64,000 nucleotides of DNA from Candidatus Omnitrophota bacterium (GCA_041651115.1 JBAZJY010000005.1:6405-70404); one strand, 5' to 3'. Positions 1-18,495 are shown, counted from the stretch's first letter. The notes: generated by a model not told the origin, from the sequence alone. Program-made: numbers and translations.

Positions 1-178
1 CTCCGGCATCTACCGGGGTGGAATTTACCAAGTAAGAATACAGCTACATAATCAGGCGGATATAGAGAGAGCTACGGGGTATTGGTCAAAAATTACCGGT
101 GTAAAAAGCGATCAGTTTACAAAAGCATATGTAAAAACAAGTCCCAACAAAAATCAAAGGTTGGATACAAGGTTTTAT

Positions 179-253: not shown

Positions 254-337
254 TTTACTATTTTTAATCAGAAAAGAATTCACTTGATTTTTGTAAAGGA
301 TTGTGGTAAAAAGAGAACAAATAATGGAGAATAATTA

Positions 338-580: not shown

Positions 581-638
581 ACGCACCCAAACCTAAAGGA
601 TGGTTTGGTGTGCACTTACTGTGCGAGGAGGTTTAAAA

Positions 639-2477: not shown

Positions 2478-2487
2478 GGCCGATAAA

Positions 2488-4101: not shown

Positions 4102-4110
4102 AAACCGTAA

Positions 4111-6264
4111 ATGGCTAAGACAATAGTAGTATTCAGCACAAAAGGCGGCGTGGGTAAAACCCTGGTCGCCTCCAACCTTGCCGTATCATTGGCCAAGGAC
4201 CAGAACCAGCGGGTCTGCCTCCTGGATTTTGACCTCCAGGCGATCGGCGACATGTCGCGGATGCTCGGGCTTAACCCCGAAAGGTCGCTGGTAGATATGC
4301 TGGAGCCTTTGAAACAGCAAGGCGCTGATTTTAAAAAAGACCAGTTTTTCAACCGCAATGCTTTTGGAGTTGACTTCTTACCCGCAGTTTTAAAACCCCA
4401 GCATATCCCCAGCCTTAACCCCGAAGGAATAAGAAATGCCTTCAGCCTGCTGGATAAAGAGTACGATTATATCATCGTCGACGGCGGTAAAAGTTTTAAC
4501 GACGCTTTTATGGCGGCATTAAATCAAGCCAATCTTATCCTGTTGGTAATTACTCCGGATATTCTTTCCATATATCAAACTAAACTGGCATTTGATACGC
4601 TGCAGTTCCTGCATTTCCCGCTTTCAATGCTGCGCATCGTTTTAAACCGCGCTGAATCGCTGGCAAGCATCAGCTGGCAGGAGATCAGGGCAAATCTGCC
4701 CGTAGATATCGTTTCGCTTATTCCGTCGGAAGGCAGGGTCGTCGGCCAGGCAGTGAACCGCGGTATACCGGTTGTCGTTGATAATCCCCGCTCAAAGATT
4801 GGCCTGGCAATAAAGAAACTCGCCTTTGATGTTACTAAAGACAGCGGCCTGTTTATTGAGCGCCGTAATTTAGACGAGCTGCAGCTTAAGGAAGAGCCGT
4901 TTGAGAAGTCGGGCGACTTTTGGAAAAAACAGGGCCTCTCGGAAACAATCGCCGAATCCGCATATTCCGAAGAAAGGGATGAAATACAACTTTTAAAACG
5001 CAGGATCCATAACCGCTTGATTGATGAGCTTGATTTGAAACGGCTGGATCTGAAGGTCTTTTCCGACGCTAAGAAAAACAGAGAGATAAATGATAAAGCC
5101 GAGATCCTGGTTGCTAATCTTTTGGCGGATGAAGCCGGCAGCCTGATCTCTTCCCAGGAAGAGCGTAAGAAGATCGTCAAGGAAATCTTAAACGAAGCCT
5201 TGAGGCTCGGGCCCCTGGAAGATTTACTTGCTGACCCGGATGTCACCGACATCATGGTCAACAATAAGGATGAAGTTTACGTAGAACGCAGGGGAAGGAT
5301 TGAGCGGACTGATAAAAAATTCGTTTCCAATATTCAGGTAAAGACGGTTATTGAGCGTATTATTGCGCCCATCGGCAGGCGTATTGATGAAAGCGTTCCA
5401 ATGGTAGATGCCCGCCTGCCTGACGGTTCGCGCGTAAACGCGATCATCCCGCCGCTTTCGCTGACCGGCCCGGCGCTGACAATCAGAAAATTCCGCAAGG
5501 AAAGGTTTAAGATAGACGAGTTGATCGGGATGAACAGTTTAAATTCGGCAATGTCTATATTCTTACAGGCATGCGTAGCCTCGCGCAAAAATATCATTGT
5601 TTCAGGCGGCACAGGTTCCGGTAAAACTACGGTATTGAATGTCTTGTCCGGTTTTATTCCCGACCGGGAGCGCATTATCACCATTGAAGACGCGGCAGAA
5701 TTAAGGCTGCACCAGACCCATTGGATAAGGCTGGAATCACGGCCTCCGAATATTGAAGGAAAGGGCGCGGTGACCATCCGCGATCTTTTCCGTAATACCC
5801 TGCGTATGCGGCCGGACCGCATCATCATCGGCGAATGCCGCGGCATTGAGACATTAGACATGCTCCAGGCAATGAACACCGGCCACGACGGGTCTATGAC
5901 CACTATCCATGCCAATTCCACGTTTGATGCATTAACCAGGCTTGATTCAATGATCCTGATGTCCGGCGTGGACCTGCCGGTCAGGTCAATACGCGAGATG
6001 ATCGCTTCAGCGATTGATATGATTGTCCACACTGCGCGGCTTGCCGACGGCACGCGTAAGATTACCCAAGTAAGCGAGATCTCCGGTATGAAGGAAGACG
6101 GGCACATTGGGCTGCAGGATGTTTTTATGTTCAAGCAGACCGGCATTGACAAGCAACAGATGGCAATAGGTAATTTCTATGCTACCGGATATGTGCCATC
6201 GTTTATTGAAGAAATGAAAGTAAGAGGCATTGCCCTTCCCGAAGATCTCTTCAAAACCCCGTGA
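4111..6264 (+). CDS. fused CpaE/TadZ-like ParA-family ATPase (N-terminal) and CpaF/TadA secretion ATPase (C-terminal)
   Basis: N-terminal deviant Walker A KGGVGKT (MinD/ParA family, as in CpaE/TadZ). C-terminal half has Walker A GGTGSGKTT, RIITIEDAAEL, GHDGSMTTIHANS and a T2SSE-family His box. One continuous 717-aa ORF. Confidence 0.8.
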   Translation: MAKTIVVFSTKGGVGKTLVASNLAVSLAKDQNQRVCLLDFDLQAIGDMSRMLGLNPERSLVDMLEPLKQQGADFKKDQFFNRNAFGVDFLPAVLKPQHIPSLNPEGIRNAFSLLDKEYDYIIVDGGKSFNDAFMAALNQANLILLVITPDILSIYQTKLAFDTLQFLHFPLSMLRIVLNRAESLASISWQEIRANLPVDIVSLIPSEGRVVGQAVNRGIPVVVDNPRSKIGLAIKKLAFDVTKDSGLFIERRNLDELQLKEEPFEKSGDFWKKQGLSETIAESAYSEERDEIQLLKRRIHNRLIDELDLKRLDLKVFSDAKKNREINDKAEILVANLLADEAGSLISSQEERKKIVKEILNEALRLGPLEDLLADPDVTDIMVNNKDEVYVERRGRIERTDKKFVSNIQVKTVIERIIAPIGRRIDESVPMVDARLPDGSRVNAIIPPLSLTGPALTIRKFRKERFKIDELIGMNSLNSAMSIFLQACVASRKNIIVSGGTGSGKTTVLNVLSGFIPDRERIITIEDAAELRLHQTHWIRLESRPPNIEGKGAVTIRDLFRNTLRMRPDRIIIGECRGIETLDMLQAMNTGHDGSMTTIHANSTFDALTRLDSMILMSGVDLPVRSIREMIASAIDMIVHTARLADGTRKITQVSEISGMKEDGHIGLQDVFMFKQTGIDKQQMAIGNFYATGYVPSFIEEMKVRGIALPEDLFKTP

Positions 6265-6608
6265 AAATAATAAACATCACAAAAGGCACTGTCGTAGCAG
6301 ATAATGCCGTTATCGCTTCTACTTTTTTTAAGCGTCTCAAAGGCCTGCTTGGTAGAAAAAGCATTGAGAAGGGCGAAGCGCTTATAATACAATCCTGCAA
6401 TTCTATCCACAGTTTTTTTATGCGTTTTCCCATTGATGTCCTATTTGTTAATAAGACCGATAAAGTAGTTGCTGTCACAAATTCCTTTGCTCCTTTTCGT
6501 ATCAGCAAGATCTATTTTACCGCTTCTTATGTTATTGAGCTTCCCGCCGGCTCTATAAAAGCTACTTCTACCTCTGTGGGAGATAAGATAGAAATAACTG
6601 CTGGTTAA
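6261..6608 (+). CDS. DUF192 (COG1430) family protein
   Basis: 115 aa. GTG start overlaps the upstream TGA (GTGA), suggesting translational coupling. LKGLLGRK...GEALII..CNSIHSFFMRFPIDVLFV...VIELPAG matches the DUF192 pattern. Confidence 0.55.
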   Translation: MKIINITKGTVVADNAVIASTFFKRLKGLLGRKSIEKGEALIIQSCNSIHSFFMRFPIDVLFVNKTDKVVAVTNSFAPFRISKIYFTASYVIELPAGSIKATSTSVGDKIEITAG

Positions 6609-6725
6609 GGTATTGGGTTAGGGTTAAGATGCCAGTATGGTAGGTGGGTTAAGGTTAAGGATTAATGGCCTAACCTCAACCTCTAAACCATACCGGCTTC
6701 TTGACCGTAACCTTAACCATAGCCT
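6603..6725. repeat. ~120-bp palindromic hairpin repeat (GGTTAAGG / CCGGTATGGTA family), copy 1
   Basis: Left arm ggttaaggtattgggttagggttaag..ccagtatggta..ggttaaggttaagg, and right arm cctaacc..aaaccataccggcttc..ccttaaccatagcc is its reverse complement. The same architecture recurs at 19377, 20634/21199, 21364 and 29199. Confidence 0.8.
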
Positions 6726-6730
6726 ATCTA

Positions 6731-6795
6731 ATGTCCATTGACAATCCCTATCTTTAATGATATTCTGGCTTTATAAATGTCCAATCTGAGGAGAG
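6731..6795 (+). promoter_or_regulatory. pair of AATGTCCA(A/T)T boxes overlapping a candidate sigma70-like promoter and RBS for the 6797 gene
   Basis: Boxes at 6731-6741 (aatgtccattg) and 6775-6787 (aaatgtccaatct). TTGACA (6738-6743), 17 nt, then TATTCT. GAGGAG RBS 6788-6793 before the ATG at 6797. The same box recurs at 21313, 21343, 29131 and 29161. Confidence 0.4.
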
Positions 6796-6796
6796 C

Positions 6797-8323
6797 ATGG
6801 GGGTTGTCCATAAATTAACACCGGAAGTCAGGCAATTTGTCCTTGAAAAAAAGCAGCTTAACCCGGAATTAAGCTGCCGGAAGATCAGTTCATTGGTTCT
6901 GGACAAATTCCAGTTCAAGCTCTCCAAGTCCAGCGCCAATGCCATATTTAAGGAAGCAGGTTTAAGCTTAGCCGTAGGCAGGCGGCGCAGCCGCGCTCCG
7001 CTGCCTAAATCTAAACCGTTTATTTATTCCGGCCTTGCGCTTTTTAAAGCCGCGGACAGTATGTTCGGCGGCTCCTTTCATATCAGCGAAGCAATAAAGC
7101 GCGTTGCCGGCGACCCGGATGCCGCGTTAAAAACTGAAAGCCTGCTTGAAGCGCATATCCTGAAGTCCGCGTTAGGCCTGCCGGTGAGTTGGCCTCAATC
7201 TTTTGCCGGAAGTCTTAACCGCAATTCCGGCCTGCTTTCAGAGATCAGCCAGGTATTAAAAAATATCAGCCAGGTCGCCGGCGGTGTTAAAGCCGTTACC
7301 ACCGACGGAAAAGAATTCTATCTTGACGGCCAACTGCACACGCTTTGGCAATCCTCTCAAATCCCGTCTGCGCTTTCCTGCCCTGCCCATAATTTAGAGC
7401 AGCGTATCCTGCAGCAGGCCAAAGGAAAACTGCCGTTCGTACTTTTTTTTGCCCCGGGATTTCGTGAGCCAACGCAGATGTTTTTTGATTTTATCCGCGG
7501 CTTCTCCGATACAGAAAAAAAATTTTCCCACTTCGTTGCGTATAATTATAACCTTGAAGAGCTCAAAAGTATAAAGCTTCCGGAGCCTGCAGGAATAATT
7601 TTCGGCATCTGGCCGTGGCAATTCAAGGAATATATAAAAATAAACGCTGTCTCCGGAATTAAAAAATTTGAATTTGCTCCGCTTAAAAAAGAATTTTTTA
7701 TCTCCGCGGTGGATGTTGAGCTTAAGCAGCCAAAACTGGATGCGACTTTGCATTTTAACGGCTGCCTGCTGAAAGCAAACGCGGAAGAAAAAACCGGTTT
7801 AATTGTTTTAGGCAGCCCGCAGCCCGCAGCTAGTGATCCTGCGGCCCTGGCTAAGGCTTACCTGGAGCATTGGCCTGACCCAACAGGCTCTTTTCAAAGC
7901 TTTAGCCGCAAGGTTGAGGCATCAACCAAGCAAAAAGATACGCAAGACAACGGGGAAGAGACCACATTGTCATTGCGAAGTGCCGCAGGCGCTGAAGCAA
8001 TCCCAATCCCCGGCCTCGATTCCTTACTTGATAACTATCTGAAAACATTAGAGTTATATGTTAGAGATAACCTGCTGCCGGGTAAATATTCAACTGAAAG
8101 CGCGACAATAATAAAAGAGCGTTTTTACCTGTTTGAGTGCGGCCTGACAAAAACAAAAGATAATCTATTTATAAATTTTAAACTTTCCCATGAAGCCGAT
8201 TCTATAAAAGACATTACCTATATCTGCAATCAGGTTAATGAAAAAATAATAATTATGCCTGACAGCCGCAGGCTTTGGCTGGCAGTTTGCTTAGAAAACG
8301 CTTTCCCGGAGGCAGGCAAATGA
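6797..8323 (+). CDS. hypothetical protein with N-terminal helix-turn-helix-like domain
   Basis: 508 aa. The first ~60 aa (LTPEVRQFVLEKKQLNPELSCRKISSLVLDKFQFKLSKSSANAIFKEAGL) look like a homeodomain / transposase-N-type HTH. The rest has no recognised domain. Sits directly downstream of the box pair and hairpin repeat. Confidence 0.5.
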   Translation: MGVVHKLTPEVRQFVLEKKQLNPELSCRKISSLVLDKFQFKLSKSSANAIFKEAGLSLAVGRRRSRAPLPKSKPFIYSGLALFKAADSMFGGSFHISEAIKRVAGDPDAALKTESLLEAHILKSALGLPVSWPQSFAGSLNRNSGLLSEISQVLKNISQVAGGVKAVTTDGKEFYLDGQLHTLWQSSQIPSALSCPAHNLEQRILQQAKGKLPFVLFFAPGFREPTQMFFDFIRGFSDTEKKFSHFVAYNYNLEELKSIKLPEPAGIIFGIWPWQFKEYIKINAVSGIKKFEFAPLKKEFFISAVDVELKQPKLDATLHFNGCLLKANAEEKTGLIVLGSPQPAASDPAALAKAYLEHWPDPTGSFQSFSRKVEASTKQKDTQDNGEETTLSLRSAAGAEAIPIPGLDSLLDNYLKTLELYVRDNLLPGKYSTESATIIKERFYLFECGLTKTKDNLFINFKLSHEADSIKDITYICNQVNEKIIIMPDSRRLWLAVCLENAFPEAGK

Positions 8324-8468
8324 GATTGACGCTTGTTTGTGCGGATGTTATAGTTAGATTGCGATTATAAATATATATATAAGGTAGGATGGTCGGGGGG
8401 GCCGGCCAAGCAAAGCCACGGATGATGTATACTAATTGTCTTTTTATGATTTTGTGGCGTGAAAGCTT

Positions 8469-8500
8469 GCAGCCGGCAGTATTCTGCCGGCTTTTTATTT
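8469..8500 (+). terminator. Rho-independent terminator-like hairpin just upstream of the first pilin gene
   Basis: Perfect 9-bp stem agccggcag / ctgccggct with loop tatt, followed by TTTTTATTT. It lies 10 nt before the pilin RBS (gggag), so it could also act as a 5'-UTR attenuator. Confidence 0.6.
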
Positions 8501-8510
8501 GGGAGTAAAA

Positions 8511-8834
8511 ATGATTTTTAAAAAAGCATTAAGCCAGAGTACCATTGAATATGTGTTGCTGGTGGCAATCACTATAATCGCGCTGGTGGTAGGAGCGAAT
8601 TTTGTTGATCAGATCAAGGGCGGTGCGTTTCAGGCGCATTTTGATGCGGCAAAACCCTTTGTAGCCGGGGAAACAGTTATCTATACCGCGCAGCCTGAGG
8701 CTCCAAGTAACACAGGCAGTACGGGAAATGTTCCGGCGGGCTGTGAATCCTGCCCCAATGATTGCCAATTGTGGCGGACCCAGGTGGGGCCGGATATGCA
8801 GACTTATTGGCGGTGCCCGCCGAACAGAGGATGA
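8511..8834 (+). CDS. Flp-type pilin paralog P1 with a 4-Cys C-terminal extension
   Basis: GGGAG RBS. Class-III leader MIFKKALSQSTIEY followed by the hydrophobic helix VLLVAITIIALVVGA. C-terminus GCESCPNDC...WRCPP. Confidence 0.6.
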   Translation: MIFKKALSQSTIEYVLLVAITIIALVVGANFVDQIKGGAFQAHFDAAKPFVAGETVIYTAQPEAPSNTGSTGNVPAGCESCPNDCQLWRTQVGPDMQTYWRCPPNRG

Positions 8835-8835
8835 G

Positions 8836-9306
8836 ATGATAGATCTGTTAAAGACGACAAGAAAACTAGCCCAGAGCCTTATTGAATACGTGATGATCTT
8901 TGCGATCGTCGCTGCGGCGCTGGGGGTAACTTATAAATATGTTTACCGTTCAATGAACGCGCGTTTGGATGATATACAGGATGTGGTAACTCCTGACCGG
9001 CCTGACGGCGGCAATTGGGATCTGCCCGACGTTGATCCGCCGGATGATCCTGAGCCGCCGAATACGGATTTAGAGAGTTGCCTTGCCGGTAATGACGCGG
9101 AATGTAACCAGCGTTTACAAGAAGGCATAGAATATTGTTGCGTGGAGTGTTGCGGCGCTGTTATGGCTGCTTGTAATGCTAATCCAAGCGACAGCGGTAT
9201 TTGTAACCCGGGTGCTCCCAGTAATGGTTGCCGCTATCCAGAGATTACCAATTGTCAGCAAAGCGGTGAGGCCCAGAGGGATATTTGCTGCGAGAATAAA
9301 TATTAA
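8836..9306 (+). CDS. Flp-type pilin paralog P2 with a 12-Cys C-terminal domain
   Basis: ATG 1 nt after the P1 stop. Leader MIDLLKTTRKLAQSLIEY plus VMIFAIVAAALGV. Pro/Asp-rich linker, then 12 Cys including CC pairs (YCCVECCG, DICCENKY). Confidence 0.6.
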   Translation: MIDLLKTTRKLAQSLIEYVMIFAIVAAALGVTYKYVYRSMNARLDDIQDVVTPDRPDGGNWDLPDVDPPDDPEPPNTDLESCLAGNDAECNQRLQEGIEYCCVECCGAVMAACNANPSDSGICNPGAPSNGCRYPEITNCQQSGEAQRDICCENKY

Positions 9307-9322
9307 CGCGGGTAAAGAAAAG

Positions 9323-9841
9323 ATGAAGAGACCTTACAGATTAGCCCAGAGTCTTATTGAATACGTGATGATCTTTGTGATCGTCGCTGCGGCAGTAGGG
9401 GTAACTTATAAATATATTTATCGCGCAATAAACGCGCGCTTAAAAAACACGCAGGATGAGCTGAACTATAGCCGTTCTGTTGAGGGAGTGGAAGCAGATG
9501 AGTATAATGACGGCAGCGGAGATAAAATTGAGACTTCTGTCGGGAATACTCGTCCGGGCTGTGAGTCTTGCCCGGATAATTGTCGGTCGCGGGTAGTAGC
9601 AACAGGCCGCGGCGGACCTAGTGCGGGTAATTGGGGGGTTGAGTGGTATTGCGCACCGGCTACAGGCGGAAACACAGGTGGAGATACAGGCGGAAACACA
9701 GGTGGAGATACAGGCGGAAACACAGGTGGAGATACCGGCGGTGACACAGGTGGGAATACCGGTGGTTGTCCTGCCGGCTCGCATCGGGTTTGTCATCCAT
9801 GCGGCCGCGGGGATACTTGTTGTAATTGCGTAGGCAATTAA
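9323..9841 (+). CDS. Flp-type pilin paralog P3 with Gly-rich repeats and a 10-Cys C-terminal domain
   Basis: Leader MKRPYRLAQSLIEY plus VMIFVIVAAAVGV. GCESCPDNC motif shared with P1. (GGNTGGDTGG)n repeat encoded by a 30-nt DNA tandem repeat. C-terminal CPAGSHRVCHPCGRGDTCCNC. Confidence 0.6.
   Translation: MKRPYRLAQSLIEYVMIFVIVAAAVGVTYKYIYRAINARLKNTQDELNYSRSVEGVEADEYNDGSGDKIETSVGNTRPGCESCPDNCRSRVVATGRGGPSAGNWGVEWYCAPATGGNTGGDTGGNTGGDTGGNTGGDTGGDTGGNTGGCPAGSHRVCHPCGRGDTCCNCVGN
9655..9765 (+). repeat. 30-nt tandem repeat (about 3.5 copies) inside pilin P3, encoding (GGNTGGDTGG)n
   Basis: acaggcggaaacacaggtggagat acaggcggaaacacaggtggagat acaggcggaaacacaggtggagataccggcggtgacacaggtgggaat. Confidence 0.8.
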
Positions 9842-9897
9842 TGTTGAGCGATCTTAATATGAACAAAAAACAGCAAAACGAAGGAGGTGAAAGAGAA

Positions 9898-10095
9898 ATG
9901 AGAAAGATGAGAAGGGAAGGACAGAGTATTCTTGAATACACCCTGCTTTTGGGTGCGATAATTGCAGTAATCGTAGCGGTTTTATTAGGTGGCCAAAGCA
10001 GCATGAAAGGTAAGGTAGAGGATACGTACGATGCGTTTGGTAATGCAATAAGCAATACGGCAAACGATGCGGATATCGGCGTGCTTACTCCGTAA
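9898..10095 (+). CDS. canonical short Flp pilin P4 (66 aa)
   Basis: GGAGGTG RBS. MRKMRREGQSILEY with the G-XXXX-EY Flp prepilin motif, then LLLGAIIAVIVAVLLGG. Typical Flp size. Confidence 0.75.
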   Translation: MRKMRREGQSILEYTLLLGAIIAVIVAVLLGGQSSMKGKVEDTYDAFGNAISNTANDADIGVLTP

Positions 10096-10114
10096 CGGAT
10101 AAGGAGGTAGTAAA

Positions 10115-10507
10115 ATGTTTCTAAGGAAGAAAGGACAATCTACTGCCGAATACGCGATTGTCATCGGCTTAGTGATTGCCGTGGCAGCAGGCATACTTCA
10201 GGTTGCCTTAAAAGGCGGCATCCGGCAGAAGAATAAACAGGCTACGGATTATTTGGTTGGTGAGAATGACGGCACAGACGGCGGTGCAGGCGGCTACGCG
10301 GCAATGAACGCCCAGATCGCATTAGGTGATCCTGCTGAACTCTACACCCAGGAAATGCGCGATACTACGGTTTTAGGCGGAGATGCCAACTACGTAGATG
10401 AAAGCGTAATGCTTAAAGGCGGAGCAGAGGAAAGACGGCAGAAGCAGGTTACCGAGACAACAGCTGTCAGCGTAGAGGCTATTGAAGGCGTAACAACGGG
10501 GAATTAA
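10115..10507 (+). CDS. Flp-type pilin paralog P5
   Basis: AAGGAGGT RBS. MFLRKKGQSTAEY plus AIVIGLVIAVAAGILQ. Confidence 0.7.
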   Translation: MFLRKKGQSTAEYAIVIGLVIAVAAGILQVALKGGIRQKNKQATDYLVGENDGTDGGAGGYAAMNAQIALGDPAELYTQEMRDTTVLGGDANYVDESVMLKGGAEERRQKQVTETTAVSVEAIEGVTTGN

Positions 10508-10548
10508 ACCGTACCGTAGATCAAAAAGTCATAGGGAGGTGAGCAATA

Positions 10549-11004
10549 ATGTTAAGGCGCAATAGTGGTCAATCAATAGTGGAGTACGCTATTCTTTTAG
10601 GCGTAATCATCGCGGCCTTATTGATCATGCAGGCATTCATCAAAAGAGGCTATCAGGGCGGCCTGAAAGATTCCGCGGACAAGATGGGCGAGCAGTTTTC
10701 CGCAGGAAATACCACAATCAAACAGGCAAGGACAATGGCAGAGGATCAAACTATCAGGGAAGCAGTGGCAACTGATGATGAAATAGCGCTGTTTACCGGC
10801 GACGTAGGCATAGCAGACGTACCGCGTACGCTTGACGCAGGCGCTTATTCTTATAGCGAGCGCAGCCCGGTGGAAATAGCTTCTACCACGCACGTAGTAA
10901 CTGACAGCGCTGATCAGGAAGCAACAAGAAAAGACGCATACGCTAATGTGCAAGTGACCAACTTTCAGTTTGTCAGTCCTGATAGTGATTTTGAAAGGCC
11001 GTAA
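10549..11004 (+). CDS. Flp-type pilin paralog P6
   Basis: GGGAGGTG RBS. MLRRNSGQSIVEY plus AILLGVIIAALLIMQ. Confidence 0.7.
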   Translation: MLRRNSGQSIVEYAILLGVIIAALLIMQAFIKRGYQGGLKDSADKMGEQFSAGNTTIKQARTMAEDQTIREAVATDDEIALFTGDVGIADVPRTLDAGAYSYSERSPVEIASTTHVVTDSADQEATRKDAYANVQVTNFQFVSPDSDFERP

Positions 11005-11017
11005 TAAGGTGGAAAAA

Positions 11018-11209
11018 ATGAAAAGACCCCTTAAGAGAGGACAGAGTATTCTTGAATACGCCCTGCTTTTGGGCGCGATAATCGCAGTGATCGTCGCAGC
11101 TTTACTGGGCAGAGGCGGTATCCAGAGTAAGGTGAGGAATAGTTATGATACTTTCGGAGATGCGATTGAGAGCACGACAACTGATCTAACAAGCAGTGTA
11201 TTTAGATAA
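11018..11209 (+). CDS. canonical short Flp pilin P7 (paralog of P4)
   Basis: AAGGTGG RBS. MKRPLKRGQSILEY plus ALLLGAIIAVIVAALLG. 64 aa. Confidence 0.75.
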   Translation: MKRPLKRGQSILEYALLLGAIIAVIVAALLGRGGIQSKVRNSYDTFGDAIESTTTDLTSSVFR

Positions 11210-11221
11210 GGAGGTAGTAAA

Positions 11222-11581
11222 ATGTTTCTAAGGAAGAAAGGACAATCTACTGCCGAATACGCGATTGTCATCGGCTTAGTGATTGCCGTGGCAGCAGGCA
11301 TACTTCAGGTTGCCTTAAAAGGCGGCATCCGGCAGAAGAATAAAAAAGCAGTGGATTTCTTAGTCGGCGCAGGCAATGACGTTGCTGCCTTTAGCAATGC
11401 CGCGTCCACAGACATCCAACTCTACACCCAGGAAATGCGCGATACTACGGTTTTAGGCGGAGATGCCAACTACGTAGATGAAAGCGTAATGCTTAAAGGC
11501 GGAGCAGAGGAAAGACGGCAGAAGCAGGTTACCGAGACAACAGCTGTCAGCGTAGAAACAATTGACGCTGCAGGACAATAA
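11222..11581 (+). CDS. Flp-type pilin paralog P8 (duplicate of P5)
   Basis: RBS and first ~40 aa identical to P5, and the C-terminal ~45 aa are near-identical. The middle segment has diverged. Confidence 0.7.
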   Translation: MFLRKKGQSTAEYAIVIGLVIAVAAGILQVALKGGIRQKNKKAVDFLVGAGNDVAAFSNAASTDIQLYTQEMRDTTVLGGDANYVDESVMLKGGAEERRQKQVTETTAVSVETIDAAGQ

Positions 11582-11603
11582 AAAATTAGGGAGGTGAGCA
11601 ATA

Positions 11604-12059
11604 ATGTTAAGGCGCAATAGTGGTCAATCAATAGTGGAGTACGCTATTCTTTTAGGCGTAATCATCGCGGCCTTATTGATCATGCAGGCATTCATCAAAA
11701 GAGGCTATCAGGGCGGCCTGAAAGATTCCGCGGACAAGATGGGCGAGCAATATTCTGCCGGCGGAACAACGATCCATAAAAGGAACGCGTTAGGCGCGGG
11801 AGGCCAGCAGATCGTAGAAGAAGTAGCGACAGTAGACGGGTCATCGCCGCTTGCTACTCTTAGCGGGCTTACGCCGGTAGGCACAATCGGCGGCGGAAAG
11901 AGCGCCTATTCTCTGAATACCAGGACAGGCGATACGATGACCTCAACCACAAAAGTGGATACTGACGATGCCCGGCACGAAGCGACAAGAGTGGCGGATT
12001 ACGGCGATGTGTCCAGTTCGGGAGGTAATTTCGCGCTGAGCGATAACGTTGATTTTTAA
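11604..12059 (+). CDS. Flp-type pilin paralog P9 (duplicate of P6)
   Basis: RBS and first ~55 aa identical to P6. The C-terminal half has diverged. Confidence 0.7.
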   Translation: MLRRNSGQSIVEYAILLGVIIAALLIMQAFIKRGYQGGLKDSADKMGEQYSAGGTTIHKRNALGAGGQQIVEEVATVDGSSPLATLSGLTPVGTIGGGKSAYSLNTRTGDTMTSTTKVDTDDARHEATRVADYGDVSSSGGNFALSDNVDF

Positions 12060-12082
12060 GCAGCTAAAAACGGGACAGTGCA

Positions 12083-12409
12083 ATGTTTATAAAAAAGAAT
12101 GGCCAGAGCCTGATGGAATACGCGATACTCTTCAGCGTAGTCGCGGCAGCGCTGTTGATCATGCAGTTTTACGTCAAGCGCGCATACCAGGGCAGGATAA
12201 AGCAGGACGCCGATGAGGTTGGCCAGCAGTATTCTCCGGGCCACACTGCATCTTCGATTTATACCAATACGATGGCAACAAGCACGACCTGCATCGGCGG
12301 CAACTGCTTTGGCCAGGATATTCCCATGGGTATGACCGTGACGAGCGGCAGTACAAGCACGACAATGAGAAAACGGGAAGGGGTTGATTCCTTTGCTTCC
12401 GAGAGGTAG
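12083..12409 (+). CDS. Flp-type pilin paralog P10
   Basis: MFIKKNGQSLMEY plus AILFSVVAAALLIMQ. VKRAYQGRIKQDADEVGQQYSPG is paralogous to the matching segment of P6/P9. Confidence 0.65.
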   Translation: MFIKKNGQSLMEYAILFSVVAAALLIMQFYVKRAYQGRIKQDADEVGQQYSPGHTASSIYTNTMATSTTCIGGNCFGQDIPMGMTVTSGSTSTTMRKREGVDSFASER

Positions 12410-12764
12410 GGCATGCCGCAACAGCGGCTATAGCGTAGTGATGTGGGCAGCAATGTTTGCCGTAATGGTGGGCATGGTGCTTTTTTTCCGCACGCCGATA
12501 AAACGGGCGATGCAGGGGAAAATAAACGATATGGCTGATTATATGTTTTGGACCAAATGGGGCCAGGCGCGTGAGCAATATAAGGGCGATGACACCGGTT
12601 ATACCAAGACAGATACTACCACCATTTCAAGAACAGAACTGGCAGACCGGAGAGGATTTGTTACTTCGGCAATGGATATTTCCGTAGGCGACAGCACCTC
12701 AACTACCGGCGTGAATGACGGGGATCAGGACGCATTGAAAAGCATTGACCTTAACGCTATTTAG
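12384..12764 (+). CDS. degenerate pilin-like paralog, possible pseudogene
   Basis: RNSGYSVVMWAAMFAVMVGMVLFF aligns to RNSGQSIVEYAILLGVIIAALLIM of P6/P9 but the EY is lost, there is no in-frame ATG with an RBS (TTG/GTG only), and it overlaps the P10 stop. IKRAMQGKINDMADYM is conserved with paralogs. Confidence 0.3.
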   Translation: MIPLLPRGRACRNSGYSVVMWAAMFAVMVGMVLFFRTPIKRAMQGKINDMADYMFWTKWGQAREQYKGDDTGYTKTDTTTISRTELADRRGFVTSAMDISVGDSTSTTGVNDGDQDALKSIDLNAI

Positions 12765-12771
12765 CCATAAA

Positions 12772-13584
12772 ATGAAAAAGAATAGGCATAACGATCATAA
12801 AATAATGGGTCAGGCAGCAGTTGAGCTGGCTATTTTCGGCAGTCTGGTGGTATTGGCTTTTTCTGTCCTTATAATGTACGGCCAGCGTTTTGACAACCAG
12901 CAGGAAATAAAAATGGAAGCGTTCCGTCGTGCCCTGCAAAAAGCTTATGAGCGTAATTCAAGCGTAAGTTATACCTATAAAAAAGAAGGCCGTAACTTGA
13001 ACCTTTTCGGCGCGTTTGGCCGCGGCCAGCCCTCTACCGTAGTTTCCACGGCCAGCGTAATGTGGCAAAAAGGCGTATCCGGCGAGCAGGACAGCAGCGG
13101 AAAAGAAAACTTCGCTTATTACCGGATCAACGACTATATGGTAGGCGATGAGATGGGCCTTCCGCGTTATCCTAAACACGTAGAAAGCCTTAGCGGCAAA
13201 AAGGAAAGGGTCCGGGTGCCTGCCAGCGTTTATTCCGAGGAAACGGAAAGAACAGAGATTTACGGTTCCAGCGTAGGCAAGCGCGAGAGCGCTGCGAGCA
13301 TAATTAATACCGCGACTTCCGACTTGACCGATACCGTTTATACAAAATTGCATGTGCGCGTTGACCATTCATACGACGACAATCCTCATGACAATTCAGT
13401 GCCCTTACCGGACTATGCGTATGAAGATCACAGCTATGATAACGAAGGTTCGCAAACAGTCCAATCCGTGCCGGGGGTTTCTCTTGGCGCTTACTCTAAG
13501 GATGCTACCAATCGCGTGAGCTACCGCCAAGATCAGGTTGGCACAACCATTCACCGCGAAAGGACATGGCAAACTGATAATTAA
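12772..13584 (+). CDS. TadE/TadF-like pseudopilin
   Basis: N-terminus GQAAVELAIFGSLVVLAF matches the TadE-like signature (G-x-x-x-VE-F/L-A plus a hydrophobic helix). ~270 aa is typical of TadE/TadF. Confidence 0.55.
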   Translation: MKKNRHNDHKIMGQAAVELAIFGSLVVLAFSVLIMYGQRFDNQQEIKMEAFRRALQKAYERNSSVSYTYKKEGRNLNLFGAFGRGQPSTVVSTASVMWQKGVSGEQDSSGKENFAYYRINDYMVGDEMGLPRYPKHVESLSGKKERVRVPASVYSEETERTEIYGSSVGKRESAASIINTATSDLTDTVYTKLHVRVDHSYDDNPHDNSVPLPDYAYEDHSYDNEGSQTVQSVPGVSLGAYSKDATNRVSYRQDQVGTTIHRERTWQTDN

Positions 13585-13585
13585 T

Positions 13586-15082
13586 ATGAGATCTAAAAAG
13601 TCCCAGTCAATTTTTGATTACACACTTGCCTTTATTGCCTTGGCAGCGCTGGTAGTGGGCATTGTCCGCACCTGGGTCTGGTTCAACGCCAACTATGCCA
13701 AGCGCCAGATGGCTTATCAGACCAGTCGTATTGTTGCCGGCGGCCGCACCTGGCTTGAAGATACCCCAACGGCTTTTGATACTCCTTACGAGGTTCCTTA
13801 TGATATCGGCGCTACCCAGGAAAGCCCCAGCCGTATTTATCAACCCCTTCCTTTGAATAATAACTGGGTATTCGGCGGTCTGGCTTCAGGCAGCACAGGC
13901 GTTGCTGTTGTCGGCGGAGAAGACTGGGTCGGCGGTTTAGGCGCCTGCGGGGACCAATGCACCCAAGAGTGCATTGGTGACACAGCGTGTTATTCAGGAG
14001 TCGGAGATTTTAACACCCTTTGCAGCTGTTACCAGGCTTGTTTTTCAGAATGTAATTGTTTAAGGCAGATATCGCCCATGACCACTCTCTATGCGTCGCA
14101 AATAAGGGATATTTGCGGCCCGGATAACGATTGTAATGTTTCTACTTGCGTTTATTCCGATTGTGAAACTACTGCCGGCTGCGGTCTTGCCTGTAATATG
14201 CGCTGGAGCGCGCAGAGGATGCGGGATGCCGCAGAGCGCTGCGATGACTTTTGGGACGGGCCGTGCAACTGGTTTGGCGGCGGAAGGTCAGCCAGGCAGC
14301 TTAGAGCAGCGGCAAAAGAACTTATCAGGATGGCCTGGCAGCAGGAAATGGGAGCAAGGTTGTCAGGGCGTTCTTCCGTGCGTTTACAGCGTTGCTGTGA
14401 GATGCAGACTGATCTTTTAGCAGCGCAGTGCATGGAAACCGCGCAGAGTACAAATGAATGCGATGCCAATTGCCTGGAGGCCGCTATTGATGTTTTTTAT
14501 GCATGCGTAGAGCGGGGAGTTGATATGGGAATGGTTACCGTTCATCTTGACGGCCCTTGTTTTGTAGAAGCGGAAATCCATAATACTTTTTGCGCTGTTG
14601 CATGCATGACCGGGGAAAACGTACCTTGCGAGGACAAAGTAACGACGCACATTAACGGCTTAAATAGTCAGATAGATGCTTATGAACAGATTATTGAAGA
14701 TAATGAAGATCTTGTAGAAGAAATAGGGGATGTGCTTGCGCAGGCCGCAGCTGCTGCAAGCACAGCTTGTGCTTATAGCAATGATACTTCCTGTTATGCC
14801 GCGGCAAGAAACGATTACTGCATGAACAACTGTTGCCGGGGAGGGGCTTGGGGCAGGGCTTGCGATGAGCCTGCGGAAAACTGCGATAATTGCGCGGGAG
14901 ATGAGTCTTGTCCTGCGTGCGGGCTTTCCCAGCTTAGCGCCAATGTCCAGGCTCAAAATGAAAACTTTGAAGAGGCGATATTAGCGATGCAGGAGGCGAT
15001 CGCGGCTTTGCCGGCCTGCTGCGATGAAGCCGTTGCGATCGTGCAGGACAGGTGCATCAGTAATATAATCAATAACCTATAA
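13586..15082 (+). CDS. Flp/TadE-like prepilin N-terminus fused to a ~400-aa domain with about 40 cysteines
   Basis: MRSKKSQSIFDY plus TLAFIALAALVVGIV, then a domain dense in C-x-x-x-C and CC motifs (GACGDQCTQECIGDTACY, CSCYQACFSECNC, CMNNCCRGG, ENCDNCAGDESCPACG). Confidence 0.6.
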   Translation: MRSKKSQSIFDYTLAFIALAALVVGIVRTWVWFNANYAKRQMAYQTSRIVAGGRTWLEDTPTAFDTPYEVPYDIGATQESPSRIYQPLPLNNNWVFGGLASGSTGVAVVGGEDWVGGLGACGDQCTQECIGDTACYSGVGDFNTLCSCYQACFSECNCLRQISPMTTLYASQIRDICGPDNDCNVSTCVYSDCETTAGCGLACNMRWSAQRMRDAAERCDDFWDGPCNWFGGGRSARQLRAAAKELIRMAWQQEMGARLSGRSSVRLQRCCEMQTDLLAAQCMETAQSTNECDANCLEAAIDVFYACVERGVDMGMVTVHLDGPCFVEAEIHNTFCAVACMTGENVPCEDKVTTHINGLNSQIDAYEQIIEDNEDLVEEIGDVLAQAAAAASTACAYSNDTSCYAAARNDYCMNNCCRGGAWGRACDEPAENCDNCAGDESCPACGLSQLSANVQAQNENFEEAILAMQEAIAALPACCDEAVAIVQDRCISNIINNL

Positions 15083-15099
15083 TTAAAAGAGATGCTGCG

Positions 15100-16428
15100 A
15101 TGATCAAGATATCCCGGAATAAAGCGCGTTATGAAAAAGGCCAGATATTCCCGTTTCTTATTGCCGTATTGGTAGTCATTTTGATCGCAATAATGATTAC
15201 GGTCAACCTTGGCCAAGTCGGGATGCTTAAGGTTGATACATCCAATGCGGCAGATGCCGGAGCGCTTGCCGCGGCCAGCACTTTAAGCGGTTATTTGTTG
15301 GGTTTTGGCCTAAAAAGCGATTTTATGGAAGCGCATATGATCACTACCGAAATCTGGGCGGTGATTAACTTTCTGGTGCATTGCGGGGATGGGCCTTATG
15401 GCTGGATAGTCGGACTGGTCCTGGCGCTTATCACCCATATCGCCGGCATGATCAAGAACTTCATAGAATATTTTATCGCGCTCACCGAAGGTAAAATGGC
15501 TTGGGGCCAGGCGAAAAAAACTGCTTTTCAGTATGCTTTTCAAAACGCCGGGGTAGATGAGGTGCGGCCGACTTTCCGGCAGTTCCTGGAGGGCGTATAT
15601 GGGATTTCCGGCGATGAAATAAACGATGTTTCGCCGGCAGACATGGCGCATTACTACAATGTTTATTCCATTGGCGATGATCCCAATAACGCCGGCTTAA
15701 GAAGCCTGATAAAGCAATATACGCAAACCGGATTTAACAAATATATGGAAGAAGCCAGGTATTGGAGATGGGGAAAGATCGCGCCGTGGGAAGGGACTTT
15801 TCCGCCGCGCGTGACTTCCGGTTACGGGTGGAATGATGATGGCACAAACGTCTGTACGGGCAGTAATGATTGCAGGGTTAATGAAGGCGAAGCGTATAAA
15901 AATTACGAAAACTGGGTAGAAGTTGAAATAATGGGTAACATAATGTATCCCCTTGATATATACAGCCCGCTTGCCGAACTTTTTGAAGCGGCCAGGGACC
16001 GGATCCTTGATGCGATTGAAGATGCAGATATGTGGGGCTGGGTAGAAGATATAGCCGATTTCGTCGTCAATCTGATATTCGGAATTACTGCCGGATCTAC
16101 GCAATTTACTTTTCCCGCCGGCTTGGAAATGAGCCCCATAGTGCCCAATACAAGACAAAATCCCATGCATGTCTGGGTCAGGCGCTACAAGAAGAATAAA
16201 GATATTGGACTATGGAATTTTGATTATGGAACCAGCGAATCGTATGCCCAGGGACGCGCTTTTGGCGAAAGAGGAACTGAAGATATTACGCCTGCATTAA
16301 GCGGCCAGATATCGGGATTTATAACCCAATGGATTGACAGCGGAGATAAGCCGGAAGTAGATGACATGTATGACATGTTTGATACCAGTCAGCATTTGTT
16401 TGAAACCGAAATTTCATACGCGAGGTAG
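15100..16428 (+). CDS. TadG-like pilus assembly protein
   Basis: KGQIFPFLIAVLVVILIAIMITVNLGQVGMLKVDTSNAADAGALAAASTL matches the TadE/G-like N-terminal signature (hydrophobic helix, then VD...A.DAAALAAA). Confidence 0.6.
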   Translation: MIKISRNKARYEKGQIFPFLIAVLVVILIAIMITVNLGQVGMLKVDTSNAADAGALAAASTLSGYLLGFGLKSDFMEAHMITTEIWAVINFLVHCGDGPYGWIVGLVLALITHIAGMIKNFIEYFIALTEGKMAWGQAKKTAFQYAFQNAGVDEVRPTFRQFLEGVYGISGDEINDVSPADMAHYYNVYSIGDDPNNAGLRSLIKQYTQTGFNKYMEEARYWRWGKIAPWEGTFPPRVTSGYGWNDDGTNVCTGSNDCRVNEGEAYKNYENWVEVEIMGNIMYPLDIYSPLAELFEAARDRILDAIEDADMWGWVEDIADFVVNLIFGITAGSTQFTFPAGLEMSPIVPNTRQNPMHVWVRRYKKNKDIGLWNFDYGTSESYAQGRAFGERGTEDITPALSGQISGFITQWIDSGDKPEVDDMYDMFDTSQHLFETEISYAR

Positions 16429-16432
16429 AACT

Positions 16433-17284
16433 ATGCTTAGACAAAAGAATATCTTGATTGCGGCAGTTGTTTTAGCATTGATCACGGTATTTTGCCTGCC
16501 CGGTTTTGCGCAAGCCAATGTTGATTTTGAAGTGCCGGTGCCCGAAGGCAGTAGTTTAGTAGAAGATAGGGATATTGCTATGGGGGGCAGGCAGATAAAG
16601 ATAAAGGTTTATACTGCTCCCGTGAGCAGCGCAGCCATCCTGGGCTATTACCGGAGTTTTTTCAGCCAACAGGGGTTCCAGAAAATCCTGGATAAACCCG
16701 AACCGGAGTTAAACAAGCACCTCTTGCGTTTTAAGCAAGGTGATGCGGTAGTTGCCATCGGTGTCTTGAATAAGCCCGGGATAAACAAGATAGTGATTGC
16801 CCGTTATTTGCAGAAAGCCGGCCAGCTTCCTCCGGAAAAATCCGGCGTTTCTTTGACGGAGCTTTTTTCTATGGTGCCGAAAAAAGAGGCTGCAGGCAAG
16901 GATTTGGCAGCTGTGCCCCGCCCGGATAATAGTATCAGGGCGGCTTTTACGGAGCGCGGCGATCATACGCAGCTTTTGTATATCGCGCCGATGAACGCAG
17001 TATCCGTAGTTGATTTTTACAAGAAAGAAATGGAAGCCCAGGGATGGGAGTTAAAAAGGGAGGTTCTCGGCTCTGAAGGCCTGGGTGCTTACGGGATAGC
17101 TAAAGAAGACGCCTTTACCCCGGAAAATCCTATTCTTGAAAGGCCGGGCCATAAGCAGGTCATCCAGGAGATGTCTATACTTGAGTTCAGCGCTGATTTT
17201 GGCGACGCGGAAATAACTATTTTACCGGATCCCAGCCAGGCCCCTGCTGGTTCCGTAATTAAAATTGAGTACGATGAAAAATGA
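16433..17284 (+). CDS. secreted hypothetical protein with an internally duplicated ~110-aa domain
   Basis: GAGG RBS. Signal peptide MLRQKNILIAAVVLALITVFCLPGFAQA. Two similar halves (ILGYYRSFFSQQGFQKI and VVDFYKKEMEAQGWEL). No recognised family. Confidence 0.5.
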   Translation: MLRQKNILIAAVVLALITVFCLPGFAQANVDFEVPVPEGSSLVEDRDIAMGGRQIKIKVYTAPVSSAAILGYYRSFFSQQGFQKILDKPEPELNKHLLRFKQGDAVVAIGVLNKPGINKIVIARYLQKAGQLPPEKSGVSLTELFSMVPKKEAAGKDLAAVPRPDNSIRAAFTERGDHTQLLYIAPMNAVSVVDFYKKEMEAQGWELKREVLGSEGLGAYGIAKEDAFTPENPILERPGHKQVIQEMSILEFSADFGDAEITILPDPSQAPAGSVIKIEYDEK

Positions 17285-17601
17285 AAAAAAATAGCCAAAC
17301 AATATTGGATTATGTTATACTACTGCTGGTTGTGATTACTGCCTTGATGATCATGGGGCATTATGTGAGGAACAGCCTCTCCGGAAAAATGCGCGAAGGC
17401 GCAGATGTATTTTCGCAGGGAGAAGTTTACAGCAACGCGAATACGCACATAACGGAGAACACCATAACGAACGAGGGCGGGTCTATAGATATTGACCTTA
17501 GCGGCCTTGAAGGTCTTAATCTTACCGGCCTTGATTTCACTTGGCTCAACAACTGGACTTTATTTGATGTTGATTTTGGCGGCTGCCCGTTTTGTTGGTA
17601 A
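17281..17601 (+). CDS. Flp-type pilin paralog P13
   Basis: ATGA overlap with the upstream stop. MKKNSQTILDY plus VILLLVVITALMIMG. C-terminal GGCPFCW. Confidence 0.55.
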   Translation: MKKNSQTILDYVILLLVVITALMIMGHYVRNSLSGKMREGADVFSQGEVYSNANTHITENTITNEGGSIDIDLSGLEGLNLTGLDFTWLNNWTLFDVDFGGCPFCW

Positions 17602-17637
17602 GTAAGTCATAAGCCGGAAAATTAAAAAAACGGAATA

Positions 17638-18495
17638 ATGGTATTTGTCGGCATACTCATAGCTGTTTTTCTTGCCCTCTATATGCTTTCCGATTATTTT
17701 ATGGAAAGCGTCATCCCTTCCCTGACCGGTTATTACGGTGAAATTCAATTAAGGCGCACCGGTAAACTCAGGGGCCAACTTGAAGAATCATTTATTTTCT
17801 GGGAAAAAAAGCGGCTGATGTTGATTTCGCTTGCCCCGCTTATCTTCGGCGGTATATCTTTTCTTTTACTCCGCCACGTCCTTGCCGCGGCTGCCGGGTT
17901 TTTACTGGGGTTTGCTTTCCCGGGATTTATGGTCAAAATGGCGTATCAGGCAAGGATGAAAAAGTTCCAGGGCCAGCTGGTTGATTCGTTGATCATGCTT
18001 TCTTCGTCGCTGAAAGCGGGTTTGAGCTTTATCCAGGCAATAGAGGTTATGTGCGAAGAAATGCCCGCTCCCATATCACAGGAATTCAAGCTGGTTTTGA
18101 AAGAAAACCGCTGGGGCTTAAACCTTGAAGAATCCCTAAAAAGACTACGTAAGCGCGTGCCGCTTGAAGAGGTCAATCTCCTGGTCAGTTCTATCCTCAT
18201 TGCCCGTGAATCAGGCGGCGAGCTGCCCAAGGTCCTTATGCGGTTGACAACTACTATACGCGATAACATTAAATTAAAAGAAAAGATCGCCACTCTCACA
18301 TTGCAGGGAAGGCTGCAGGGCTTAATCATGATGTTTTTGCCTATCGGCTTTAGCTATTTTGTTTCCAAGCAGAACCCCGAGCATTTTGTGGTAATGTGGC
18401 AGAATGCCACGGGCAGGATGTTCATTATGATTGCCGTAGGGCTGCAGATCGTCGGCATGGTCTTGATAAAGAAGATAAGCACAATACGCATATGA
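17638..18495 (+). CDS. tadB: Tad pilus inner-membrane platform protein TadB (T2SS F-type domain)
   Basis: Polytopic. T2SSF-type domain (SLKAGLSFIQAIEVMCEE...VNLLVSSILIARESGGELPKVLMRL). Confidence 0.75.
   Translation: MVFVGILIAVFLALYMLSDYFMESVIPSLTGYYGEIQLRRTGKLRGQLEESFIFWEKKRLMLISLAPLIFGGISFLLLRHVLAAAAGFLLGFAFPGFMVKMAYQARMKKFQGQLVDSLIMLSSSLKAGLSFIQAIEVMCEEMPAPISQEFKLVLKENRWGLNLEESLKRLRKRVPLEEVNLLVSSILIARESGGELPKVLMRLTTTIRDNIKLKEKIATLTLQGRLQGLIMMFLPIGFSYFVSKQNPEHFVVMWQNATGRMFIMIAVGLQIVGMVLIKKISTIRI

Follow-up and report, generated by a model that had tools for sequence, protein, structure and literature searches.

Introduction

The silent pilS copies of Neisseria lack a promoter, a ribosome-binding site (RBS) and the conserved N-terminal coding part, and conversion that depends on RecA and on a guanine quadruplex (G4) brings variable segments into one expression locus, pilE, at high frequency. 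The opa genes of Neisseria encode beta-barrel outer-membrane proteins, lie at scattered loci and undergo phase variation of a coding repeat. In the R64 shufflon, the Rci recombinase and inverted 19-bp sfx repeats provide alternative C-termini for PilV, the product of a single gene, and tandem flp paralogs are found in the tad loci of Aggregatibacter (flp-1/flp-2) and Haemophilus ducreyi (flp1-3). The present study deals with a stretch of 64,000 nucleotides (the window, with positions counted from its first letter) that originates from a metagenome-assembled genome (MAG) of Candidatus Omnitrophota, and in particular with positions 9898-12059, which hold six complete Tad/Flp-type pilin genes, P4 to P9, on one strand and in two tandem three-gene units (P4-P5-P6 and P7-P8-P9). 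Both units are built as mosaics of letter-identical and strongly divergent segments, a pattern that probably goes back to an old duplication kept partly uniform by gene conversion.

The Omnitrophota are uncultured, mostly ultra-small bacteria that are thought to be predators or parasites, and the Tad pilus is one of their few candidate organelles for host contact, often encoded beside giant open reading frames (ORFs) (PMC10066038). Multiple type IVb pilin genes are described for Bdellovibrio (PMC5430801). The Kil Tad pilus of Myxococcus xanthus, according to the passages of Herrou et al. 2025 (PMC12075869) devoted to it, has four paralogous kilL-kilM-kilN 'Tip' clusters, whose products combine a conserved alpha-1N helix bundle with variable distal domains and are proposed to be interchangeable modules widening the target range; letter-identical blocks or gene conversion are not reported in those passages. 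These Tip clusters may be the closest functional analogy to the duplicated trio of Omnitrophota, both cases involving Tad-family pili, predatory or proposed-predatory bacteria, paralogous three-gene pilin units and a conserved helix with variable exposed domains. The P4-P9 unit is, however, not a member of the KilLMN family: KilL, KilM and KilN are homologs of TadE, TadF and TadG, with KilN being large, and are encoded in clusters scattered over the genome, whereas P4-P9 comprise 63-151 amino acids (aa), have no above-threshold TadE or Tad domain and lie in tandem inside an operon.

The resemblance to pilE/pilS consists of several pilin-related copies, conserved and variable segments and, presumably, RecA-dependent conversion, but here the copies are complete, the conserved parts are the ones that appear homogenised, the variable parts change little from ortholog to ortholog and no G4 motif was found in the array. 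The opa genes and similar families likewise consist of full-length paralogs in which a near-identical framework and highly divergent exposed-loop segments are maintained by inter-locus recombination; in contrast, the genes described here encode pilins in one operon, and none of the six contains a phase-variable repeat. The flp paralogs, like the pilin genes of Bdellovibrio, are likewise adjacent Flp-type genes inside or close to a tad locus that share the G/XXXXEY motif and the hydrophobic helix and differ in their C-termini, but here three pilin families are duplicated, a beta-sheet domain being predicted for two of them, and nucleotide identity reaches 100% block by block. As to R64, the recipient specificity of a type IVb minor pilin is altered by switching between C-terminal segments, whereas neither inverted repeats flanking the segments nor a recombinase (in the neighbouring ORFs scanned) were found here.

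Results and Discussion

Mosaic of identical blocks and divergent segments

A sequence-only reading of the window had proposed a tandem duplication of a three-pilin unit with a diverged middle, and this was confirmed by the ORFs, by exact repeats and by an identity plot of the two units. Within the pilin families F1 to F6 that recur in related arrays (see below), P4 and P7 belong to F3, P5 and P8 to F4, and P6 and P9 to F5. Three blocks are letter-identical between the units (Table 1), of which blocks 1 and 3 begin 17 nt upstream of the start codons, so that the 442 nt without any difference include untranslated RBS regions. Aligned in 30-nt sliding windows, the units show 100% identity in the blocks and 10-50%, with indels, between them, i.e. 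the pairwise identity is sharply mosaic and not uniform across each gene. Permutation of the alignment columns gave an identical run of at least 139 nt in 0 of 20,000 shuffles, the longest shuffled run being 41. P5 and P8 share 79% of their residues, while nucleotide identity in their loop segment is 23-50% with indels; P6 and P9 are identical over the N-terminal 49 aa and 39% identical over the C-terminal 102 aa, their post-helix parts having 30-60% nucleotide identity.

The RBSs, leaders and N-terminal helices, claimed earlier to be identical throughout, are indeed so for P5/P8 and P6/P9 but not for P4/P7, in which the RBS and leader sequences differ, the 5' end shows 83-88% nucleotide identity (88% over 72 nt of the helix) and the longest exact match is 22 nt. 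Similarly, P5 and P8 were said to share their last ~45 aa; residues 75-121 are shared, but the final 7-9 residues differ.

All six proteins start with a short basic leader, followed by Gly, the sequence QSxxEY and a hydrophobic stretch, which is the G/XXXXEY signature of Flp/Tad prepilins. Each gene has its own Shine-Dalgarno sequence and ATG, and the intergenic gaps on the common strand measure 12-41 nt. The surrounding locus encodes a CpaF/TadA ATPase, TadB/TadC, a secretin and RcpC/CpaB, as is required of a Tad locus for Flp/Tad (type IVc) pilins. A Pfam search found no above-threshold family for any of P4-P9 and no Flp_Fap (PF04964) match at E <= 1; the sub-threshold matches were TadE PF07811 (E 0.005), DUF4244 and Class_IIIsignal PF04021 (E 0.07), and P5 had only weak ones, to TadE and DUF4244. 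Some JGI records name members of these families 'Flp pilus assembly pilin Flp' or 'UPF0333'. With 56-58 aa, mature P4 and P7 fit the size of Flp (~40-60 aa), and the mature forms of P5/P8 and P6/P9 comprise 113-124 and 145 aa, respectively; with their predicted four-stranded sheet, the latter two pairs resemble small minor pilins more than canonical Flp.

Predicted structures

The AlphaFold2 model of P5, based on an alignment of 100 sequences (predicted local distance difference test, pLDDT, 74.5), consists of a helix (residues 10-50), a low-confidence segment (51-75) and four strands (77-122), and that of P9 (pLDDT 67) of a helix (6-51) and, after it, four strands that include a long insert of low confidence. 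The boundaries of the blocks fall at those of the predicted helix and sheet, and the low-confidence loop that joins the two corresponds to the divergent segment of P5/P8, at the place of the alpha-beta loop in type IV pilins. The idea of a conserved assembly interface combined with differing exposed parts agrees well with this arrangement, since the leader, the cleavage site and the alpha-1 helix (in P5/P8 also the predicted sheet) are conserved, while the low-confidence loop and the P6/P9 post-helix part differ. The P5/P8 loop and the P6/P9 post-helix domain would thus contain the residues most likely to face a partner cell, and a surface or host-binding role may be assumed for them.

Synonymous divergence and probable gene conversion

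Synonymous and nonsynonymous divergence (dS and dN) and the proportion of synonymous differences (pS) were estimated for each segment according to Nei and Gojobori. Between the paralogs, dS is 0 in block 1 (41 codons) and 0.03 in both block 2 and block 3, whereas synonymous sites are saturated in the P5/P8 loop (pS 0.87) and in the P6/P9 post-helix part (pS 0.80, dN 0.64). In P4/P7 the helix has a dS of 0.5 despite near-identical residues, and the C-terminal half is saturated (pS 0.82); the P4/P7 helix is thus an internal control for purifying selection alone. An ortholog of P8 from a sibling sample (locus L162, ERZ27247823; 87% nucleotide identity) differs from P8 by a dS of 0.24 in the helix, 0.47 in the loop and 0.64 in the sheet, with six synonymous changes falling within the stretch of block 1. 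Because dS is close to 0 in the blocks as against 0.24-0.64 in this ortholog, the blocks have to be younger than the split of the two species, and the saturated segments much older; saturation, together with the dS of 0.5 in the P4/P7 helix, also indicates that the duplication itself is old. The near-identical flanks had been noted as a possible substrate for recombination between the units, and this contrast between blocks, outside segments and ortholog is the mark that such recombination appears to have left.

We consider it probable that an old tandem duplication of the F3-F4-F5 trio was followed by concerted evolution through conversion, with two distinct exposed surfaces being kept. The trio would have been duplicated in this lineage long ago, and repeated RecA-type gene conversion between the units would homogenise the blocks, erasing differences where enough uninterrupted identity remains, namely in the RBS, leader and alpha-1 helix of F4 and F5 and in the beta-sheet core of F4. 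The conversion tracts would end at strongly diverged, indel-bearing segments, i.e. the post-helix loop of F4 and the entire post-helix part of F5, which would persist unconverted as two distinct versions conserved between orthologs. P4 and P7, sharing at most 22 identical bases in a row, would for that reason have escaped homogenisation. The array would provide a small but clear case in which sequence divergence sets the limits of concerted evolution; the mechanism is not new, and this familiar mode of surface-protein evolution is met here in a little-studied phylum.

A scan revealed no terminator between the units and no convincing internal promoter, and all six genes are presumably co-transcribed and translated. 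With a shared leader, cleavage site and helix, the paralogs P5/P8 and P6/P9 could be served by one peptidase and one platform and be packed in the same filament core, and the two exposed surfaces might represent two binding specificities or two alternative sets of minor pilins. Through the identical blocks, unequal crossing-over could also remove, add or rearrange units.

Orthologs of the divergent segments

Orthologs were sought in a space of 5.8 billion proteins. The P8 loop is nearly unchanged in the orthologs P0002 and P0003 (dN/dS ~0.16) and also matches the F4 consensus, the P5 loop has a unique Gly-rich insertion, and across the alignment of the whole family the F4 loop is a hypervariable, indel-rich region. 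For P9, the ortholog P0122 shows 80% identity overall and 73% in the C-terminal part, and P7 has the orthologs P0195 (81%) and P0196 (73%); the C-terminal 102 aa of P6 are at most 51% identical to any database protein. P4 is 58% identical to P7 at the protein level and is closest to an F3 gene of another locus, L085_3393 (74%). The exact P8 protein is encoded also on the ENA contig k141_2733124.

P0195, P0003 and P0122 are located together, followed by a P10-like gene, on a single 1,833-bp contig of JGI 3300075153, which represents the closest relative. On this contig the reading frame of the P7 counterpart (P7') is overlapped for 20 nt by the end of the gene upstream of it. When the P6-P7 junction of the window is translated in the P7 frame (VILKGRNKVEKM), the result is similar to MIFKDRKGEKM, by which P0195 is extended at its N-terminus. 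We infer from this that the closest relative has an F5 gene just upstream of P7' and so would share the duplication. A metagenome scan yielded no near-identical strain, the best match being 63% identical. The view of unit 2 as 'resident' and of unit 1 as 'foreign' was dropped; since P6 and P8 are close to the family consensus and P5 and P9 are divergent members, neither unit as a whole looks foreign.

Pilin arrays in other Omnitrophota

The P5/P8 family has 286 database matches of ~115-125 aa and the P6/P9 family 73 matches of ~140-150 aa, and in both families every match with a named source comes from Omnitrophota/Omnitrophica or from an unclassified 'bacterium'. As judged from 79 related metagenomic loci, the usual array consists of F1 (~50 aa), F2 (~45 aa), F3 (~56 aa, sometimes in two copies), F4, F5 and F6, followed by a TadE-like gene, a gene for a large Cys-rich protein and a TadG-like gene. 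F4 and F5 are represented by one gene each in most of these loci, and the F3-F4-F5 trio is single-copy in most relatives. At locus L163 a short F2 pilin gene is directly followed by P7-, P8- and P9-like genes. Upstream of the P8 ortholog on L162 (ERZ27247823, positions 1-175) lies non-coding sequence with a hairpin and not an F3 pilin gene, hence array order differs among near relatives.

The mosaic is a general property of Omnitrophota pilin arrays that recurs independently and is not peculiar to this contig. Locus L123, with paralog sets of F4 and F5 at 6001-8307 and 8483-10580, has three F4 paralogs, whose helix and sheet blocks are 93-100% identical at the nucleotide level and whose loop is unalignable and differs in length, and the same mosaic is seen in the two F4 genes of L137 (2209-3040). 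F5 paralogs at L100 (770-1729), L123 and L140 (3118-4112)/L146 are 90-100% identical over ~170 nt of 5' sequence and 20-50% thereafter. The array is a conserved six-family series, some members of which have been duplicated repeatedly and combine homogenised assembly modules with anciently diverged exposed parts.

A more far-reaching idea, which we regard as possible but doubtful, is that F4 and F5 pilins amplify repeatedly and independently, that recombination keeps their scaffolds identical, and that the F4 loop or the F5 post-helix domain is swapped, or kept as an ancient module, so as to tune the pilus surface and the host or prey range. Such a modular array would be a functional counterpart of the Kil Tips of Myxococcus, which are likewise interchangeable but built from different pilins, and would stand beside the giant secreted proteins of the locus. 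If true, recombination-driven tuning of the pilus surface would set the host or prey range in ultra-small, host-dependent bacteria.

Alternative explanations

An old duplication followed by purifying selection alone, with no recombination, would be in keeping with the extreme conservation of the N-terminal helix in protein across the whole family. Selection at the protein level, however, preserves neither synonymous sites nor intergenic bases, and yet the blocks, RBS regions included, are free of differences, while the P4/P7 helix has accumulated synonymous changes under near-identical residues and the P8 ortholog has done so in the very same blocks; purifying selection alone is refuted by these synonymous-site data, and we give it practically no credence. 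Programmed diversification of an expressed pilin, whether by conversion of the pilE/pilS type, by an invertase of the shufflon type or by a diversity-generating retroelement (DGR), is suggested by a superficial likeness, that is, by repeated conserved flanks around divergent exposed segments, and cassette-style diversification had indeed been put forward in the sequence-only reading. That proposal did not stand, as all six genes are full-length with RBS, ATG and leader, and 5'-truncated or partial silent pilin copies were found nowhere in the 64 kb. No inverted repeats flank the segments (three weak inverted pairs of 16-20 nt are unrelated to the gene ends), no G4 motif is present in 8300-12500, and no recombinase or reverse transcriptase (RT) domain was detected among the neighbouring ORFs scanned, which did not include two giant ORFs. 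The P8 loop, with the low dN/dS given above, and the P9 C-terminus are stable between orthologs. A pilE/pilS cassette system was rejected because silent donors and G4 are lacking and the exchanged tracts are the conserved segments; exchange of the conserved scaffold and not of the exposed part means that its direction is opposite to that of pilE/pilS. A shufflon was rejected for want of flanking inverted sites and of a recombinase domain among the neighbours, and a DGR because no alignment is possible between the divergent segments, which are of unequal length, whereas template/variable-region pairs have the same length and differ at adenine positions, and because no RT domain occurs in the scanned ORFs. 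Programmed diversification is, in our judgement, extremely improbable.

Two strain alleles joined in tandem, or slightly different repeats collapsed to identity, could have created the pattern during assembly. The lengths of blocks 1 and 2 are just below k = 141, the k-mer of a separate MEGAHIT assembly (ERZ27247363), two contigs of which break inside the 163-nt repeat of block 3, and this k141 assembly and that of NCBI may derive from the same reads. One of the two, a 17-kb contig (L001), equals window positions 91-10672 except for one 24-nt repeat unit and terminates exactly 141 nt into the 163-nt repeat; the other, of 1,174 bp (L082), comprises the 163-nt repeat, the P6 C-terminus, P7, P8 and the next copy of the repeat. 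The sole path that uses each of these contigs once is, however, the tandem order of the window, which is found also in the NCBI annotation of the MAG as five consecutive genes, WC532_08750 to WC532_08770, encoding the exact proteins on a contig of 71,867 bp. The unique P6-to-P7 junction is present both in this 71.9-kb contig and in L082, P4 and P7 differ throughout, so that no cycle could be invented from a bubble, the contig of the closest relative appears to have the same F5-to-F3 junction, and the same mosaic exists in independent metagenomes; an artefact is therefore very unlikely. A biological alternative that also predicts saturation outside the blocks and almost no synonymous divergence within them is allele capture, by which anciently diverged F3-F4-F5 alleles with identical conserved blocks existed in the population and were brought together through out-of-register integration via the blocks, or through partial conversion of a transferred unit, so that the tandem mosaic would result from one or a few recent steps and not from long-term concerted evolution. 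It would explain why nothing closely related was found for the divergent parts of unit 1 (the unique P5 loop and the P6 C-terminus), whereas unit 2 has orthologs at 73-81%, why P4 is nearer to the L085 F3 gene than to P7, and why array organisation varies among near relatives such as L162 and L163. Against it, a P6-P7-like junction seems to exist on the JGI contig that carries P0195, P0003 and P0122, in which case the duplication would be older than the split, three identical blocks interleaved with four divergent segments require several events anyway, and the consensus-like and divergent genes are spread over both units; on balance we hold allele capture to be unlikely.

Several points weigh against an old duplication homogenised by conversion, which we nevertheless prefer. 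Assemblies that possibly share reads are the basis both for the complete identity of the blocks and for the phasing across the 163-nt repeat, the nucleotide-level clock comes from a single ortholog (L162) and concerns F4 only, and an age of the duplication greater than that of the split from the closest relative is suggested only indirectly, by amino acid similarity in an overlapping frame and by gene coordinates. A neighbour-joining tree of F3, based on ~56 residues, is weak and too short to tell which unit is ancestral. Comparison of the P5 model with the Protein Data Bank (PDB) by Foldseek gave no significant match (best E 0.31, to ribosomal proteins), probably because the helix-sheet packing of the monomer is unreliable (predicted template modelling score, pTM, 0.36), and for lack of such a match the pilin fold is deduced only from the motif, the order of secondary structures and the genomic context. 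A prepilin peptidase (peptidase A24, TadV/CpaA type) had no match among the window ORFs scanned, and its gene may lie elsewhere in the genome.

The Tad locus and neighbouring genes

The coordinates of the array and of the surrounding genes are listed in Table 1. The Tad machinery is encoded on the same strand as the pilins, with above-threshold Pfam matches to RcpC (4.9e-25), Secretin (2.2e-39) and T2SSE (2.5e-64) as well as in two T2SSF proteins and one Tad (PF13400) protein. The best matches of the ATPase in a search of 185,579 species genomes were Candidatus Omnitrophota MAGs, with 53-56% identity. The TadE-like and TadG-like genes (12745-16428) are single-copy and separate from P4-P9. P10 shares 55% of its N-terminal residues with P6/P9, and dS between them is saturated.

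Table 1. Pilin genes, repeat blocks and Tad genes in the 64,000-nt window
Feature	Position	Strand	Description
RcpC/CpaB	1554-2477	+	Pfam match above gathering threshold
Secretin	2488-4101	+	Fused to TonB C-terminal domain (TonB_C); Pfam match above gathering threshold
TadZ-TadA (CpaE-CpaF) ATPase	4111-6264	+	Fusion; Pfam match above gathering threshold
P1-P3	8499-9841	+	Upstream pilins of the same operon, families F1 and F2 (F2 duplicated)
P4	9898-10095	+	Unit 1, F3, short Flp-type pilin, 65 aa (mature ~58 aa); ORF with own RBS; REG/QSILEY (slash, cleavage site)
P5 (WC532_08750)	10115-10507	+	Unit 1, F4, pilin of 130 aa; KKG/QSTAEY
P6 (WC532_08755)	10549-11004	+	Unit 1, F5, pilin of 151 aa; NSG/QSIVEY
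P7 (WC532_08760)	11018-11209	+	Unit 2, F3, short Flp-type pilin, 63 aa; KRG/QSILEY
P8 (WC532_08765)	11222-11581	+	Unit 2, F4, pilin of 119 aa; KKG/QSTAEY
P9 (WC532_08770)	11604-12059	+	Unit 2, F5, pilin of 151 aa; NSG/QSIVEY
Block 1, 140 nt	10098-10237 = 11205-11344	+	Letter-identical; RBS and codons 1-41 of P5/P8 (leader, alpha-1 helix)
Divergent loop segment of P5	10238-10337	+	P8 counterpart 11345-11417, 27 nt shorter
Block 2, 139 nt	10338-10476 = 11418-11556	+	Letter-identical; codons 75-121 of P5 (predicted beta-sheet)
Block 3, 163 nt	10532-10694 = 11587-11749	+	Letter-identical; RBS and codons 1-49 of P6/P9 (leader, alpha-1 helix)
Divergent post-helix part of P6	10695-11004	+	P9 counterpart 11750-12059
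P10	12083-12409	+	Pilin of family F6, after the duplicated units
Further pilin-like genes	12083-15082	+	
Downstream Tad genes	12745-19373	+	TadE-like pseudopilin, 514-aa Cys-rich pilin-like protein, TadG-like (PF13400), TadB, TadC (T2SSF)
TadG-like protein	15100-16428	+	
TadB and TadC	17638-19373	+	

Two unusual fusions are found in the Tad machinery, one of the secretin with a TonB C-terminal domain and the other of TadZ (a ParA/MinD-like ATPase) with TadA/CpaF. Upstream of the pilin array, a protein of 508 aa (6797-8323), preceded by a DUF192 gene, belongs to no Pfam family and has only faint helix-turn-helix (HTH) matches. A transposase was considered for it and rejected, since 31 related loci have the gene conserved directly ahead of their pilin array, and it looks like an uncharacterised conserved component of the Omnitrophota Tad locus. 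A promoter-like site follows at 8326-8354 (TTGACG, 17 nt, TATAGT, with an upstream TG), and a strong 9-bp GC-rich hairpin with a T-run (8471-8492) lies only ~10-20 nt before the first pilin gene; this arrangement, which has no Rfam match, could be a 5' leader or an attenuator. A search of the whole window against Rfam returned only a tRNA (179-253) and no known RNA element within the array.

The upstream pilins P1-P3 have Cys-rich C-terminal extensions, giving mature proteins of 100-165 aa, compared with the 45-55 aa of the F1 and F2 pilins of relatives, and P1 and P3 have the motif GCESCP(N/D)(D/N)C in common. The F2 pilin of L163 terminates at ...DELTYRRN, whereas P3 runs on past the same point. 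A similar pattern is seen in P2 and P3, an older pair of duplicates, in which the first 117 nt (8867-8983 and 9342-9458) are 85% identical and the C-terminal parts are unrelated. Within P3 (9637-9780), nine overlapping copies of a 12/24-nt repeat encode (TGGNTGGD)n, and the contig L001 of the k141 assembly is exactly one 24-nt unit shorter in this repeat, which suggests that the copy number in this pilin gene is polymorphic.

Downstream of TadC, two adjacent paralogs of ~177 aa with weak PsbP-domain matches (19488-20024 and 20071-20601) precede an ORF of 2,515 aa (21562-29109, + strand), which lies directly downstream of the Tad locus and ahead of a giant frame. The latter is open on the + strand from 29501 to the end of the window (64000), corresponding to at least 11,500 aa, and matches the giant ORFs reported beside pilus and secretion genes of Omnitrophota.

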